DNA from: a virus
Lineage: Duplodnaviria > Heunggongvirae > Uroviricota > Caudoviricetes
Strand: one strand, 5' to 3'
Length of the DNA: 32,225 nt
Virus record (IMG/VR): IMGVR_UViG_2541047764_000008
This document shows, piece after piece, positions 3,667 through 11,582 of this stretch. Positions within the stretch are counted from its first letter, which is position 1, and every line of letters begins with the position of its first letter. The notes under the pieces are model-generated. The model did no database searches. It was given only the letters and a program-made list of their open reading frames with translations, and had not been told where the DNA came from. A program made the position numbers and the translations under genes.

Positions 3667-4005
3667 TTATTCACACAACGCTATAGCTTCACTGAAAATC
3701 GGGCCAATATCAGCGCTTTCTAATGAATCGTTAGGGTCTTTTTTAAGAACTTCTTTTAAATCTCGCCCTTCCATTTTTCCTGATTTGACGGCGTTTTTAG
3801 CCATACCGCTTAGGGGGTATCGTTCATCCGTATCAATGTCATAAACAAAAACGTAGTGACTATTTACACAAGATACCTTTGCATGCTCAAAGGTCAGCGG
3901 CCATTTATCACCAAAAGATTTAATATCAATCTCTTTGAACTTTTCAGCGGCAAAGGTTGAGGAAGAGAGTGCAATACAGATTATTCCAAATAAAAACTTT
4001 TTCAT
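3667..4005 (-). CDS. Small secreted/periplasmic protein (moron) between repressor and integrase
   Basis: 112-aa ORF with a classical N-terminal signal peptide (MKKFLFGIICIALSSSTFA followed by AEK) and two Cys in the mature part. AT-rich relative to flanking int and cI. No family assigned. Confidence 0.55.
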   Translation of the reverse strand: MKKFLFGIICIALSSSTFAAEKFKEIDIKSFGDKWPLTFEHAKVSCVNSHYVFVYDIDTDERYPLSGMAKNAVKSGKMEGRDLKEVLKKDPNDSLESADIGPIFSEAIALCE

Positions 4006-4014
4006 TACTGCTCC

Positions 4015-4878
4015 TTAAACATGCTTTTCCAAGGTAAAGATAACTGCACCTGATGGTGTGATATCAGAGAGATTACATTCAAACTCAGCAGACTTATTTG
4101 ATAGCCTGACCTTTCCACCTGGCATTCTGATTACGTCAAAAATATCGAGCGCACCATCAATGCCAATAAGCCAACGACCATTTCCTATCTTTGAGTTAGA
4201 ACAATCAACAAGCCAAGATGCGCCAACTCCATCAATAAAGACCAACTCATCAATGTTTGCAGGAACCATTGAAAGGTCTGGAGTCCAACGCCCAATATCT
4301 TTTAACTCACCAGCTTCAAGACGACATTTTCTTACTGTTAAGGCGTTAAGTGATTCACCCTCTTTGCTGTCTCGCATTTGGCCTTTTCCTGTAGATAGCC
4401 ACTCTAACGATACGCCAGTATCGAGTGCGCAGGTCACAACCACATCGCCAGGGAAGAAGTCACGCCTAACCCAAGTGCTAATAGTACCGGAAGAAATACC
4501 TAATAAATCACCAAGCTCTTTTTGCATCGTAAAACCATAAGCATCCAGAATCCTACGCAAAACGGTTTTACCGCCGTTCGTCATAATCTCGTCATAAAGC
4601 TCTTTGCCTTTTAACTTGCAACCGACTCGCCCATGATTTGCATTTGCAAGCTCACCACTTACAAGCCAATTAATATCAGCGCCCGTGTCAAGACAACACC
4701 TAACTATGATGTTGCCAGGTATTGCATCGCGTTGAACCCAGCCGCTAACGCTATGTTTCGCGATTCCTAGCAGGTCAGCCAAATCCTTTTGCATCTTGAC
4801 GCCATAGGCTGACATTAAGCGCTCTAATACGCCATTTGACGCACCTATGCGCCACTGAACATCAAGCTCAGAACTCAT
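4015..4878 (-). CDS. cI: CI-like immunity repressor with tandemly duplicated N-terminal HTH domain
   Basis: 287-aa ORF. Residues ~17-75 and ~107-165 are an obvious internal repeat (LERLMSAYGVKMQKDLADLLGIAKHSVSGWVQRDAIPGNIIVRCCLDTGADINWLVSGE versus LRRILDAYGFTMQKELGDLLGISSGTISTWVRRDFFPGDVVVTCALDTGVSLEWLSTGK), each resembling the 186-type CI HTH module, followed by a C-terminal domain. It is divergent from the early operon. Confidence 0.7.
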   Translation of the reverse strand: MSSELDVQWRIGASNGVLERLMSAYGVKMQKDLADLLGIAKHSVSGWVQRDAIPGNIIVRCCLDTGADINWLVSGELANANHGRVGCKLKGKELYDEIMTNGGKTVLRRILDAYGFTMQKELGDLLGISSGTISTWVRRDFFPGDVVVTCALDTGVSLEWLSTGKGQMRDSKEGESLNALTVRKCRLEAGELKDIGRWTPDLSMVPANIDELVFIDGVGASWLVDCSNSKIGNGRWLIGIDGALDIFDVIRMPGGKVRLSNKSAEFECNLSDITPSGAVIFTLEKHV

Positions 4879-6898: not shown

Positions 6899-9124
6899 AT
6901 GACAAAATATACTTTTGCTTTTCCGTGGAATGCCCCACGGTCGGCAATAGTCAGTCCATATCTTACCTACGACCAACAGTATCGCCGCGACCGTATGTTC
7001 GCGGCTTTGCTGCATGCGAAAAAGGTGCTTTCTCTCCAGCCCGACTGCGTGCGGTTAGATGTTTATCGCACTGCTGCGGTGCTGGAGCAAAATCAGGGCA
7101 GTCAACGAACCAATGCCTTTTTAATCAGCTTCTGCAAAAAGGCATTGCCGCGTCTTGAACTGGTCGCAAAAAAATACGAATGCGCGGGTATCAACAGCAA
7201 TGTATCAACCGCTGTTTTTGGAGGTCATTTTGATACCCAGCTTATGCAATATCTGGCGTCTCGCATGGTTAATATGGTCGCCCGATATAACCGCCTCCCG
7301 GACATGTCGCGCGCTGATGTTGACCTGTTGGCCGCTGATATTGCTAATTTCATTCGTGGTGAACTTGCCAACATTGATGACAACGGATTCGGCGAGCTTA
7401 AAACGCTGTACACCTGGTATATCCGTGCTGGCTTTATTTCCCTCCAATTCAACGTTATCCCACCACATTGGGATCGGGTTGCAAAAAAATATGTCGGCGC
7501 GGATGAAATCGCACCGGCTATCGCCAAGATGTTTAACGATGGGTGGTGGCGTGGTCGTTTGCGCCGTGTTGCGGCTACTTGGCGCGAACACCTGCAAATT
7601 GCAGTCGGCAACGTCAGCAAGAAAAAAAACACCTACGCGAGTAAAAACTGCGTGACTGACTGGCGTGAACAAAAGCGCCGCACTCGTGAATTTCTCAAAG
7701 GTCTGGATCTCGAAGACGAAGACGGCAACCGTATCAGCCTGATTGAAAAATATGATGGCTCAGTTGCTAACCCTGCCATTCGCCGCTGTGAGCTCATGAC
7801 CCGCATTCGTGGGTTTGAAAACATCTGTAATGAGCTCGGTTATGTTGGTGAGTTTTACACTCTAACCGCGCCGTCAAAATATCACGCCACGACTAAAGCC
7901 GGGTACCGTAACAGCAAATGGAGCGGTGCTAGCCCGGCTGACACGCAAAACTATCTAACCGGTATCTGGGCGCGTATCCGTGCCAAACTGCATCGGGAAG
8001 ATGTCCGTATTTTCGGTATTCGTGTCGCCGAACCCCATCACGACGGCACTCCACACTGGCACATGCTGATGTTCATGCTGCCGGAAGATGTTGAATATGT
8101 TCGATCCATCGTCCGTAAATACGCATGGAAAGAAGACCGCCACGAACTGAAAAGCGATAAAGCCAAAAAAGCACGTTTCCACGCCGAGGCCATTGACCCG
8201 GAGAAAGGCAGCGCAACCGGCTATGTTGCTAAATACATCTCAAAAAATATCGACGGTTATGCTCTCGATGGTGAAACCGATGATGAAAGTGGTGAACTGC
8301 TGAAAGAGACAGCCCCCGCCGTTTCAGCATGGGCAGCGCGCTGGCACATCCGTCAGTTTCAGTTTATCGGTGGTGCGCCGGTGACGGTCTACCGTGAGTT
8401 GCGTCGCCTCGCTGATACCGAAACCGCGCACGGCCTGAGCGTTGAGTTTGCCGCCGTCCATGATGCCGCCGACGCAGGTGACTGGGCTGGTTATGTTAAT
8501 GCGCAGGGTGGGCCGTTTGTCCGTCGCGATGATTTACAGGTGCGTACACTGTATGAACCCCGTACCGAGCTTAATCAGTACGGTGAGGAAACGGTATGTA
8601 TTAAGGGGGTCTACGATTCCTCCATAGGTGCAGGAAGCCCGATTTTAACCAGGCTTACTCAGTGGAAGATTGTTCCGAAGCGTGCTGTTGATTTGGCCGT
8701 TGACCTTCAGGACGGCAAAGCCGTCCCTCGGAGTTCTGTCAATAACTGTACGGGAAGCGAAAGCGATCCACCGATACTGGATTTAACAAAACCACTGAGT
8801 CGGCGTGAAAGACGAGAATTGACCAACCGACTCAGGAAGCAAAAGCCAGCAGCACGGCGAAAATTCATCCACGGAACGGATGAGCAAAACGCAGCTATAG
8901 CTAAAACTATCGACGAAATACATCTGACAACCGGCATTAATATCAGCCGGGGCGAAGCCCTGCACCTGATGGCCGGTGGTAAAAGTTGTTTTGATGGTAA
9001 ATGGCTACGCGGAACGGCCAAAGGAGAAATATTTTCCGCAGCACCATCGCATGAGGCTAAAGCTCGGAAAATCCTTAATCGTGTTGCGGCGATGGCTGAA
9101 GCATCAAAACCAATACATGAGTAA
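6899..9124 (+). CDS. A: Replication initiation protein A (rolling-circle HUH endonuclease)
   Basis: 741-aa ORF with an HUH-type motif (GTPHWHMLMF) and a downstream tyrosine motif (GYVAKYISKN). Size and position match P2/186 gpA. The exact start is uncertain; 6899 is the first ATG of the ORF. Confidence 0.9.
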   Translation: MTKYTFAFPWNAPRSAIVSPYLTYDQQYRRDRMFAALLHAKKVLSLQPDCVRLDVYRTAAVLEQNQGSQRTNAFLISFCKKALPRLELVAKKYECAGINSNVSTAVFGGHFDTQLMQYLASRMVNMVARYNRLPDMSRADVDLLAADIANFIRGELANIDDNGFGELKTLYTWYIRAGFISLQFNVIPPHWDRVAKKYVGADEIAPAIAKMFNDGWWRGRLRRVAATWREHLQIAVGNVSKKKNTYASKNCVTDWREQKRRTREFLKGLDLEDEDGNRISLIEKYDGSVANPAIRRCELMTRIRGFENICNELGYVGEFYTLTAPSKYHATTKAGYRNSKWSGASPADTQNYLTGIWARIRAKLHREDVRIFGIRVAEPHHDGTPHWHMLMFMLPEDVEYVRSIVRKYAWKEDRHELKSDKAKKARFHAEAIDPEKGSATGYVAKYISKNIDGYALDGETDDESGELLKETAPAVSAWAARWHIRQFQFIGGAPVTVYRELRRLADTETAHGLSVEFAAVHDAADAGDWAGYVNAQGGPFVRRDDLQVRTLYEPRTELNQYGEETVCIKGVYDSSIGAGSPILTRLTQWKIVPKRAVDLAVDLQDGKAVPRSSVNNCTGSESDPPILDLTKPLSRRERRELTNRLRKQKPAARRKFIHGTDEQNAAIAKTIDEIHLTTGINISRGEALHLMAGGKSCFDGKWLRGTAKGEIFSAAPSHEAKARKILNRVAAMAEASKPIHE

Positions 9125-9198
9125 TTCATATCCATATCATGCACATACAGCAATCGCTCTATTCGTTTTTTTTCTTCCCATCTTTTGCCAATACGTGC

Positions 9199-9218
9199 TA
9201 CTGTATAAATATACAGTA
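9199..9218 (+). promoter_or_regulatory. LexA operator (SOS box) overlapping a promoter upstream of the Tum/DinI-like module
   Basis: TACTGTATAAATATACAGTA is a near-perfect match to the LexA consensus TACTG(TA)5CAGTA. A -35-like TTGCCA sits at 9185-9190 and the box overlaps the -10 region. A GGGAGG RBS and the ATG at 9238 follow. Confidence 0.75.
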
Positions 9219-9237
9219 ACCCTATGGGAGGGATTTC

Positions 9238-9420
9238 ATGGTTGGCGAACATTTCAGCCGAACGCAGCAAAAGTGGGCTTGTGTGCAATTTATTGCCGAG
9301 GTATCTCTGATTGCAAACTGCAAGCCATCAGACTTAAAGCTCGCGCTCACTCTCATTGCAGACCTAGCAAACAGCGAAAATAACGAAACCGAAGATGATA
9401 ATTTTTATAAGGCTGATTAG
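9238..9420 (+). CDS. Small SOS-regulated ORF, possible N-terminal part of a Tum-like antirepressor
   Basis: 60-aa ORF with a strong RBS (GGGAGG, 5-nt spacer) directly downstream of the LexA box. It is in the same frame as the DinI-like ORF, separated only by TAG (9418-9420) plus one codon. Confidence 0.45.
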   Translation: MVGEHFSRTQQKWACVQFIAEVSLIANCKPSDLKLALTLIADLANSENNETEDDNFYKAD

Positions 9421-9423
9421 ATT

Positions 9424-9657
9424 ATGAGAATCAATATCACGTTGGATAAAGAGCAAAAAATTAGTCAGGCAACGTTGGATGCACTTGAGGCTGAGCTGTA
9501 CCGCAATCTTCAACCTATTTACCCAAAGACTGCTATCCGCATTCGTAAGGGCTCAGCTAATGGCGTTGAGTTAAGCGGTTTGAAACTGGACGAAGATAAA
9601 AAACGAGTAATGGAAATCATGCAGCAGGTATGGGAGGACGATAGCTGGCTGCATTAA
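9424..9657 (+). CDS. DinI-like protein (possible C-terminal/Tum72-like part of a Tum antirepressor)
   Basis: 77-aa ORF (MRINITLDKEQ...WEDDSWLH) resembling E. coli DinI in length and in its acidic Trp-containing C-terminus. It lies downstream of the LexA-controlled promoter. Confidence 0.7.
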   Translation: MRINITLDKEQKISQATLDALEAELYRNLQPIYPKTAIRIRKGSANGVELSGLKLDEDKKRVMEIMQQVWEDDSWLH

Positions 9658-9726
9658 CAAACGCCGTCGGTGCTGAATCTTGCTTTCAGTGCTGGCGGGG
9701 TTGAAACTGGCTCCGAGAGGCGTTAG
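9658..9726 (+). repeat. Imperfect direct repeat, copy 1 (~70 bp)
   Basis: AACGCCGTCGGTGCTGAATCTTGCTTTCAGTGCTGG...GGCGTTAG; shares the first ~40 nt almost exactly with the copy at 10062-10130. Confidence 0.6.
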
Positions 9727-9850
9727 TTCTACCTTTCAAACTTTCTCGATGTTTTATTGGTTACACACCGGTGATTAATGGGACGTTACCTTAGAGGATT
9801 TTATAGTGGCGCTTTGACAGCACTGAATAAAATTCATTGAGGGCGATAAT

Positions 9851-10060
9851 ATGCATCGACTACCGGGCGAAATTCCGCAGCACAAAACTAAAAGCATAAA
9901 ACTGATGGCTATCGTTCATCGCTTGCAGACGATAATGGTCAATGAGAACCTGACGCCAGCGGAATTGGTCGGGTGTGCAGAAATAGTCAGGGATAACTAC
10001 GATAAGCTGAACGATATCAGCAGGCCGACACAATATGCGCCACCACCATGTCGAAGATAG
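9851..10060 (+). CDS. Hypothetical small protein flanked by direct repeats
   Basis: 69-aa ORF with a GAGGG RBS 7 nt upstream of the ATG. No recognisable motif. Confidence 0.35.
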   Translation: MHRLPGEIPQHKTKSIKLMAIVHRLQTIMVNENLTPAELVGCAEIVRDNYDKLNDISRPTQYAPPPCRR

Positions 10061-10061
10061 C

Positions 10062-10130
10062 GAACGCCGTCGGCGCTGAAACTTGCTTTCGGTACTGGAG
10101 GGTTGAACAACGAGTCCCTCTAGGGGTTAG
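10062..10130 (+). repeat. Imperfect direct repeat, copy 2 (~70 bp)
   Basis: AACGCCGTCGGCGCTGAAACTTGCTTTCGGTACTGG...GGGGTTAG; a partner of the copy at 9658-9726. Confidence 0.6.
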
Positions 10131-10272
10131 TCTGTTCCGTAGAGATTGGCCCAAACCGGCACTATTAAAGCCGGTTTTCGTATGTCCAATCTAAAGAATG
10201 GGGGCTGACATCCCACCATCAGATTTGTGTTATTTTAGTGCTACTCATTCGTCATTAGACATTGTAAGGGCA

Positions 10273-10989
10273 ATGTATATGAAACCAAGCACACACTGCG
10301 TTTATTGCGGTGTTCTCATGAATAAGGTTGAAAATCACCCCCACTGCCGCTCAGTTGAACACATGATTCCGCAAGTTTCAGTCTCCATTCATAGAACCAA
10401 CGGCGAAGGTGATTTCTATGTATGCAAAAAGTGCAATGGCGATAAAAGCCGAATTGACGAGGTGTTAGGTGTCATTTGCCGCATGGTAGGAGAGCACTCA
10501 ACAGGCAGCTTTGATGCTGTTAATAAATTCCATAATGCGCTTAAAAGAAAAGACTCGAAATTTCGTGAAGCATTCCAGAGTGTTAGGCATACAAAAAAAG
10601 GTGCGCAGATAACATTACCCCTAAATGGTAGGGAGATTTACCAATACGGCACCTGGTTAGCCAAGGGAGTATTTTTCTTAGAGTATGGGCAATTGTTGAC
10701 TGTAGATAAATTAATTTGGATTAATATCGTTCGCCACGATGAAGTAATGGCTATTAAAGAAATGTATAGAAATGAACGTGGCTCTGAGGCATTTGATGAT
10801 TTATCGAAGAATAGCAACATTCCAAATATTAATGGCGAGTCGTTTCTGATTGTTGGCCAGGATGCCCGAGAAATGTTTATTTGCTTCAATAGAGTAATGA
10901 TGTTTCATATAAAGATACTGGATAGAACGTTTATTAATCAAAAAAAATGCAAAAAAGCCCTACTCAATCTGGAAAAAAGGGTTCGATAA
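10273..10989 (+). CDS. HNH-nuclease-domain protein with uncharacterised ~170-aa C-terminal domain (moron in the A-to-cos accessory hotspot)
   Basis: HNH motif at the N-terminus (CVYCG...HPHCRSVEHMIPQ...FYVCKKCNGDKS). AT-rich by eye and sharply different from flanking phage DNA. Start uncertain: ATG at 10273 or 10279; the track's longest form starts at 10198. Confidence 0.55.
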   Translation: MYMKPSTHCVYCGVLMNKVENHPHCRSVEHMIPQVSVSIHRTNGEGDFYVCKKCNGDKSRIDEVLGVICRMVGEHSTGSFDAVNKFHNALKRKDSKFREAFQSVRHTKKGAQITLPLNGREIYQYGTWLAKGVFFLEYGQLLTVDKLIWINIVRHDEVMAIKEMYRNERGSEAFDDLSKNSNIPNINGESFLIVGQDAREMFICFNRVMMFHIKILDRTFINQKKCKKALLNLEKRVR

Positions 10990-11012
10990 GATAAATAAGA
11001 TGTAATGAATGT

Positions 11013-11034
11013 GTGCATGCCACTGCATTTTTTT
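11013..11034 (+). terminator. Weak terminator candidate downstream of the HNH moron
   Basis: Short hairpin (TGCA/TGCA stem) followed by a T7 run (11028-11034). Confidence 0.3.
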
Positions 11035-11134
11035 GCATGCGTTGATCCAACCGCCAAAACATAAGGAGTACCGGTAGTAGCTTAGCTAAAGCGAGGTCAT
11101 GCAACTGCATTAAAACCGACCCATAAAGCGGGCA

Positions 11135-11153
11135 GGCGTGGCGGGGAAAGCAT
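11135..11153. other. cos: cos-like 19-mer (candidate cohesive-end site of the P2/186 family)
   Basis: GGCGTGGCGGGGAAAGCAT closely matches the 19-nt cohesive end I recall for P2/186 (GGCG[A/T]GGCGGGGAAAGCA[C/T]). It sits in a non-coding GC-rich stretch upstream of the portal end of the late region, as expected. Confidence 0.5.
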
Positions 11154-11357
11154 TGCGCGCCAGCGGTGGTGCGTATTATTAAAAATTATCGTCTGAGAAC
11201 GTCGTGACGGCGCTGTAGTGGCCGGGTGTGATCGTGGGCGCGTGGTGCGTCTGTGGCGTGGTGCTAAAGGATGGGATCAGTTGCACAATTTTACGGTTTC
11301 GCTTTGGCTAATATCCATATTGAGACTTTATGTTCCCCACAACAGTTGGAGGCTTTA

Positions 11358-11582
11358 ATGGATAACTATCATATTACAAAAGATGGCGATAAGTGGAAGT
11401 TGCAAAAAGAGGGCAATGACCGCCCTAGCAAGACCGCGCCCACAAAGGCCGAGCTGATTAAAACAACATCTGAGTTTATGTCGAACAAAACAGGCTCGGT
11501 CAAAATTCACAAGGAAGATGGGAAAATTCAGGAAGAACGCACTTATCAGAGAAAAGATGATCCTAAAAAGTCTAAGGGCTAA
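11358..11582 (+). CDS. Small conserved hypothetical protein (DUF2188-like)
   Basis: 74 aa from the ATG at 11358 with a GGAGG RBS 5 nt upstream. The pattern KDGDKWKL...G...IHKEDGKIQEERTY...DP resembles small DUF2188-type proteins (from memory). Confidence 0.4.
   Translation: MDNYHITKDGDKWKLQKEGNDRPSKTAPTKAELIKTTSEFMSNKTGSVKIHKEDGKIQEERTYQRKDDPKKSKG

Follow-up and report, generated by a model that had tools for sequence, protein, structure and literature searches.

The region at positions 9175–9702 of the DNA analysed here (the window; 32,225 nucleotides, IMG/VR record IMGVR_UViG_2541047764_000008) is, with a probability of about 90%, the SOS operon of a PSP3-like prophage containing two genuine genes, tumA and tumB. 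The TAG triplet at 9418–9420, which lies between their coding sequences, is the normal stop codon of tumA. The module is the known tumA/tumB pair, whose arrangement annotation and literature already describe. The GenBank record of PSP3 (AY135486) labels tumA as "similar to 5' end 186 tum; UV induction of prophage" and tumB as "similar to dinI and 3' end of 186 tum", and tum is given as divided by a stop codon in Fels-2 and PSP3 in the part of Lemire et al. 2011 (PMC3121763) that deals with this gene. A preliminary description of the module had left three options for the TAG, namely a nonsense mutation in a single gene, stop-codon read-through and a natural two-protein arrangement; the last of these is the one found in the annotated tumA and tumB of PSP3 and described in PMC3121763.

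The window is a PSP3-like prophage

By its sequence, the window is assigned to the PSP3-like prophages of the genus Eganvirus in the P2/186 family. Phages vB_EcoM-613R3, SI22, SW9, SEN1, PSP3, Midge and RCIP0057 are collinear with it and about 89–95% identical, and its immunity region comprises an integrase, a 186-type CI, an ORF possibly encoding a Cox-like excisionase/repressor (weak PHROG match) and a CII-type activator. The earlier suggestion that a LexA-controlled Tum-type module resides here in a 186/PSP3-like prophage was borne out. E. coli strain Ecol_545 has a chromosomal module 100% identical to that of the window, annotated by RefSeq as two separate genes, a "hypothetical protein" (60 aa) and a "DinI family protein", and tumA of the window type was found in 81 of 5,426 complete E. 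coli genomes.

Two further features were observed on the integrase side of the prophage. Between int and cI, the window has an intact DUF2511 gene (3667–4005, 112 aa), for which the annotation of the Ecol_545 prophage, a match in other respects, gives a frameshift (L035, 493–821). Beside the integrase, a two-gene Septu-like defence candidate occupies 230–2583 on the minus strand; its first gene (1105–2583) encodes a PtuA-like AAA ATPase (PADLOC PDC-M01A, 2e-158; PtuA, 1e-133), and the second (230–1108) an HNH nuclease (PDC-M01B, 8e-142).

Layout and control elements of the module

Reading the sequence from 5′ to 3′, the LexA box is followed by a 60-aa ORF, a single ATT codon and a 77-aa ORF in the same frame as the first. 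The features of the module, together with the cI and A genes, are as follows.

4015–4878, minus strand: cI, 186/PSP3-type immunity repressor, 287 aa, presumed target of TumA (Pfam PF07022 in two stretches, and PF16452)
6899–9124: replication gene A, directly 5′ of the tumA/tumB module
9175–9204, plus strand: putative SOS promoter, homologue of 186 p95, placed by aligning the window with p95 as annotated in phage 186
9199–9218, no strand assigned: LexA box TACTGTATAAATATACAGTA, overlapping the −10 element
9226–9232, plus strand: strong Shine–Dalgarno sequence GGGAGGG of tumA, 5 nt 5′ of the ATG, read from the sequence
9238–9420, plus strand: tumA, 60-aa small antirepressor (PHROG 1993), ATG start, TAG stop at 9418–9420
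9421–9423: junction codon ATT, between the tumA stop and the tumB ATG
9424–9657, plus strand: tumB, 77-aa DinI-family protein (Pfam DinI PF06183; PHROG 189)
9660–9702, plus strand: hairpin after the tumB stop, from RNA folding, at the place of the 186 partial terminator t95a

The near-consensus LexA box that had been noticed at the head of the module was confirmed, with agreement to the consensus TACTG(TA)5CAGTA at 19 of 20 positions. It was the sole site with three or fewer mismatches in the 32 kb window, and no such site arose in 100 shuffles. The stretch 9170–9220 is near-identical to the part of phage 186 annotated as the p95 promoter with its LexA site: the putative −35 (TTCCCA, 9175–9180) and −10 (TACTGT, 9199–9204) elements are separated by an 18-nt spacer, compared with TTCACA, TACTGT and 18 nt in p95. 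Since a generic sigma-70 consensus scan of 9050–9900 detected no promoter, the promoter assignment derives from homology to 186 p95 alone; the proposed overlap of the LexA box with a promoter is therefore upheld by the alignment, in which the box covers the −10 element, and finds no echo in the generic scan.

The in-frame succession of a 60-aa ORF and a DinI-like 77-aa ORF, with TAG and one codon between them, was likewise as first described. The tumB ATG lies 3 nt past the tumA stop, and the only ribosome-binding candidate upstream of it is a poorly spaced AAGG, with no well-spaced Shine–Dalgarno sequence. No canonical terminator was detected in a scan of 9050–9900; the hairpin at 9660–9702 has a 14-bp core stem (−27 kcal/mol, z = −3.2) and is without a U tract.

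Outside the module proper, a motif, CATATCATGnACATACAG, occurs about 50–65 nt 5′ of the LexA box, just past the stop of gene A (window 9133–9150; L001; L002 3483–3499). It is invariant in the window, PSP3 and 186, and the sequence immediately 3′ of it diverges. Downstream, three cargo ORFs on the same strand as tumB (9851–11582, plus strand) occupy the place of 186 orf97. They encode a 69-aa homologue of PSP3 gp37, a 263-aa PHROG 31193 protein (weak PtuB/HNH-like match, 7e-5) and a DUF2188 protein that matches the PADLOC defence candidate PDC-S16 (1e-14). Like orf97 in 186, these ORFs might belong to the transcript that starts at the LexA-controlled promoter.

TumA and TumB as proteins

TumA is 98.3% identical to its PSP3 counterpart (59 of 60 residues, full length, with the stop at the same position). 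It matched PHROG 1993 at 1e-31, a family annotated as "unknown function", and gave no match to a Pfam family and no meaningful match among PDB sequences. According to an AlphaFold model of moderate confidence (mean pLDDT 66), TumA would consist of two helices (3–25 and 30–48), with a turn between them at the conserved NCKP, and a disordered acidic tail.

TumB is 98.7% identical to PSP3 TumB and a clear member of the DinI family: it matched Pfam DinI (PF06183) at E 7e-24, with 84.3 bits against a cut-off of 24.2 and coverage of profile positions 2–63 of 63, and E. coli DinI (1GHH) at E 2.6e-9. E. coli DinI binds RecA filaments and modulates their co-protease activity.

The tumA stop is conserved in position, and tumB is not

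A search of 5.8 billion proteins returned 208 TumA homologues. Lengths were taken from the best 120 of these 208, almost all of which are 60–61 aa long and end at about residue 60; the listed homologues come from Escherichia, Salmonella, Klebsiella, Citrobacter, Enterobacter, Cronobacter, Yokenella, Kluyvera, Pluralibacter, Atlantibacter, Kosakonia, Buttiauxella and other genera. Ten longer calls (66–93 aa) were inspected. Nine of them had been started too far 5′, so that their translation runs through the LexA box; all ten share the C-terminal end region, and a DinI domain is absent from each; no fused homologue was found among the matches listed.

For a comparison at the DNA level, we used 25 tumA loci from the genomes of 25 different species. 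Every locus carries a CTG-N10-CAG box about 40 nt 5′ of tumA, and the tumA stop lies at the same place throughout, as TAG in 15 loci, TAA in seven and TGA in three. The check on conservation of the TAG that had been proposed at the outset thus gave a divided answer, in that the position of the stop is kept and its identity as TAG is not. The tumA core (codons 1–46) is under strong purifying selection, with dN/dS of 0.01–0.14 where calculable, and the more distant loci show pS values of up to 0.5–0.96 against pN values of 0.01–0.17.

A DinI-like gene was found 3′ of tumA in only eight of the 25 loci; the remaining 17 contain no DinI-like sequence within 1.5 kb. Among the eight, the DinI-like gene is frameshifted in one (L015) and out of frame with tumA in two others, which have gaps of 2 nt (L023) and 17 nt (L027), the latter with a Shine–Dalgarno sequence of its own for tumB (GTGAGG). 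The PSP3-like subclade (the window, PSP3 and L003–L006) always has TAG, one codon and ATG in frame, a constancy attributable to the very low divergence within this group (95–100% identity). L004 and part of the 81 E. coli genomes combine a 98%-identical TumA with another TumB allele downstream, which is 66% identical to the C-terminal half of 186 Tum; the occurrence of the same TumA with two TumB alleles indicates that tumA and tumB recombine independently.

Small antirepressors of either the TumA type or the 186 N-terminus type (60–79 aa) also occur stand-alone after gene A, with no DinI gene. In the stand-alone loci checked for it (L007–L014, L016–L022, L024–L026 and L028–L033), the LexA box lies at about −38 to −45. 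Stand-alone N-terminal domains of the 186 type (63–79 aa) were found in L028–L033, where the LexA box is at −38 as in 186, and in ENT90 (L037), and Yersinia phage vB_YenM_31.17 (L036) has a stand-alone distant relative of TumA. In L028–L030, the next gene encodes a DNA cytosine methylase. The existence of stand-alone antirepressors indicates that the architecture can do without the DinI module. Judged from these sequences, three architectures exist: the antirepressor alone, the antirepressor with a separate DinI gene, and the fusion.

Two tumA loci that are 84–90% identical to enterobacterial ones lie in assemblies labelled Chryseobacterium sp. 18061 (L011) and Bacillota MAG (L008). These assignments most likely reflect contamination or mis-binning of enterobacterial contigs.

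Relation to phage 186 Tum

The preliminary description had likened the two ORFs together to 186 Tum. For the C-terminal part, this resemblance is direct: TumB is 47% identical to 186 Tum residues 71–145 (75 residues, E 5e-28), and its homology to the C-terminal half of 186 Tum is firm at the sequence level. For the N-terminal part, BLASTP did not align TumA with the corresponding half of 186 Tum, and the likeness emerged at the profile level only. Profile–profile alignment (hhalign) of 21 TumA sequences with 17 sequences of the 186-type N-terminus paired TumA 16–47 (VQFIAEVSLIANCKPSDLKLALTLIADLANSE) with Tum 14–45 (VEMIARLTAEGTCQERDREIALNLIAEIARGN) at 85% probability and E 6e-6, over just 32 columns. 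The motif common to the two profiles is V-x-x-I-A ... C ... D-x-x-x-A-L-x-L-I-A-[DE]-[IL]-A. The profile match lends moderate support to homology between TumA and the N-terminal half of 186 Tum.

The 186 record annotates truncated DinI-like Tum products as separately translated, one of which, Tum95.5, starts at an internal GTG behind a strong AAGGAGG; thus, the fused phage too makes the DinI-like module on its own. We conclude that 186 Tum is a fused variant of the same two modules. Since 186 retains a working internal Shine–Dalgarno sequence and start for the DinI part, we infer that 186 tum arose by fusion of two genes. A protein search with the 186 Tum N-terminus returned no full-length 146-aa protein among the matches listed, although the phage collection contains such proteins, and the length distribution was therefore not used to estimate the frequency of fusion.

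TumA occurs with one type of CI

The window CI has two tandem Phage_CI_repr HTH domains (residues ~14–80 and ~103–169) followed by a CI C-terminal domain, and this duplicated-HTH form is common to PSP3, SEN1, SW9, Midge and related phages. Within the phage collection, 10 records have TumA, and exactly these 10 have a CI that reaches 70% identity or more to the window CI; beyond them, no CI exceeds 38%. Likewise, the records with a 186-type Tum N-terminus largely coincide with those having a 186-type CI (at least 58% identity), and the overlap includes phages such as vB_Sal_PHB48 and vB_YpM_MHG51, the backbones of which are otherwise close to the window. The type of antirepressor thus tracks the type of CI across a distance of about 4.4 kb, the pattern that partners in specific binding would be expected to show. 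This co-occurrence in sequence is consistent with an action of TumA on CI.

Alternative readings of the TAG and of the 60-aa ORF

The TAG could be taken as a nonsense mutation that breaks a single 186-type tum gene, with SOS induction defective or altered and the internal ATG serving to make the DinI-like part alone. Such a reading draws on 186 Tum, which is one 146-aa ORF with the same domain order, and on the placement of the window ORFs in frame and one codon apart. Against it, the stop position is kept in the TumA homologues listed (best 120 of 208), none of which is fused to DinI; the stop is retained as TAG, TAA or TGA across 25 species; and tumA, itself under strong purifying selection, is present in viable isolated phages such as PSP3, SEN1, SW9 and Midge, with the DinI gene absent from 17 of the 25 loci. 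The conserved place of the stop, the variation among stop codons, the missing or out-of-frame DinI and the selection on tumA together exclude a recent nonsense mutation, so that the idea of one protein interrupted by a stop is scarcely credible and was abandoned. The same loci bear on the idea that ribosomes might read through the TAG, in a programmed way or depending on the host, as in amber suppression, and so yield a 139-aa fusion resembling 186 Tum beside the separate proteins. TAG is the most easily suppressed stop codon in E. coli, and the junction in the PSP3-like subclade is consistently in frame; the latter is explained by the 95–100% identity of its members, and other lineages have TAA or TGA, tumB is out of frame in L023 and L027, most tumA genes have no DinI gene to read into, and no fused protein was found among the homologues listed. 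The variety of stop codons, the variation in frame and the absence of tumB provide no support for conserved read-through, and this second option of the preliminary description now appears very improbable.

A further possibility is that the 60-aa ORF is a mere leader or upstream ORF that controls translation of the prophage dinI and has no antirepressor function. The lack of a Pfam or solved-structure match for TumA and the "unknown function" label of PHROG 1993 would suit a leader, as would the apparent dependence of tumB on tumA translation (3-nt gap, no good Shine–Dalgarno sequence). However, the conservation extends beyond the reading frame to the amino-acid sequence itself (dN/dS 0.01–0.14), and tumA and its LexA box persist in the 17 of 25 loci that lack a DinI gene. 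The strict co-occurrence of TumA with one CI type and its profile-level match to the antirepressor half of 186 Tum also speak against a leader. In addition, the relevant part of PMC3121763 assigns antirepressor activity to the upstream PSP3 gene, citing a personal communication of E. Christie via Bunny et al. 2002. We consider the leader explanation highly unlikely. Across the comparative loci, an in-frame TAG-NNN-ATG junction is not general in the TumA family. There is a slim chance that this junction is non-neutral within the PSP3 subclade, where slight amber read-through or full reinitiation might fix the proportions of TumA, TumB and a trace fusion, the fusion tethering a RecA-binding DinI domain to CI.

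Proposed mechanism

With tumA and tumB taken as two genuine genes, we propose the following model. In the undamaged cell, LexA bound at 9199–9218, overlapping the −10 element of the p95-type promoter, would hold the operon off. DNA damage would activate RecA and thereby lead to self-cleavage of LexA and transcription of the operon. TumA, predicted to be a 60-aa helical hairpin with an acidic tail, would then bind the non-cleavable 186-type CI and reversibly stop it from binding its operators; once CI is off the operators, the early lytic promoter would fire and the prophage would be induced. This course from LexA through TumA to CI is the most likely one, on the basis of homology and the literature: 186 Tum has been described as resembling an antirepressor fused to DinI, and as binding CI and reversibly blocking operator binding (PMC3121763), and tum has been given as the reason for the UV inducibility of 186, PSP3, Fels-2 and SopEPhi (PMC2771037).

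TumB would be an optional accessory in this scheme. It probably acts on RecA and the SOS response, RecA filaments being its most likely target, and may tune the strength or duration of SOS; this role is modelled on the truncated DinI-like Tum products of 186, which are so annotated. Since the tumB ATG follows so closely on the tumA stop and is without a well-spaced Shine–Dalgarno sequence, TumB is probably made by termination–reinitiation coupled to tumA translation.

The correct labels would be tumA (SOS antirepressor) and tumB (DinI homologue), in place of the "hypothetical protein" that tumA now bears in E. coli RefSeq, and the prophage is predicted to be SOS-inducible via an antirepressor instead of repressor cleavage. 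Beyond correct annotation, the significance is small; the comparative result is an incremental example of how prophage induction switches evolve in modules.

Comparison with known systems

PSP3 is the closest described counterpart. As in the window, its tumA and tumB follow replication gene A, and it has an identical LexA box and an identical junction (GAT TAG ATT ATG). TumA and TumB each differ by one residue; there are some differences in the flanking cargo genes and in the CI allele, and PSP3 CI is of the same double-HTH type as the window CI, to which it is 83.6% identical.

In phage 186, Tum is encoded by a single ORF in the LexA-repressed p95 operon and acts as an antirepressor of 186 CI; the operon has the same genomic position and a near-identical promoter and LexA-box region. 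Unlike in the window, the two modules are fused into a single ORF without an intervening stop, the linker between them being some 12 codons longer, and 186 CI (192 aa, one HTH) is 31% identical to the window CI.

[quoted passage not shown] By the same description, the Gifsy operons differ in having dinI first, in belonging to lambdoid phages and in acting on another repressor family (gfoR/gtgR; members DicA and RacR). As for the host protein, TumB aligns with E. coli DinI (1GHH) over its full length, including the acidic C-terminal W-E-x-D-x-W helix region. Unlike E. coli DinI, TumB is phage-borne and appears to be translationally linked to an antirepressor gene.
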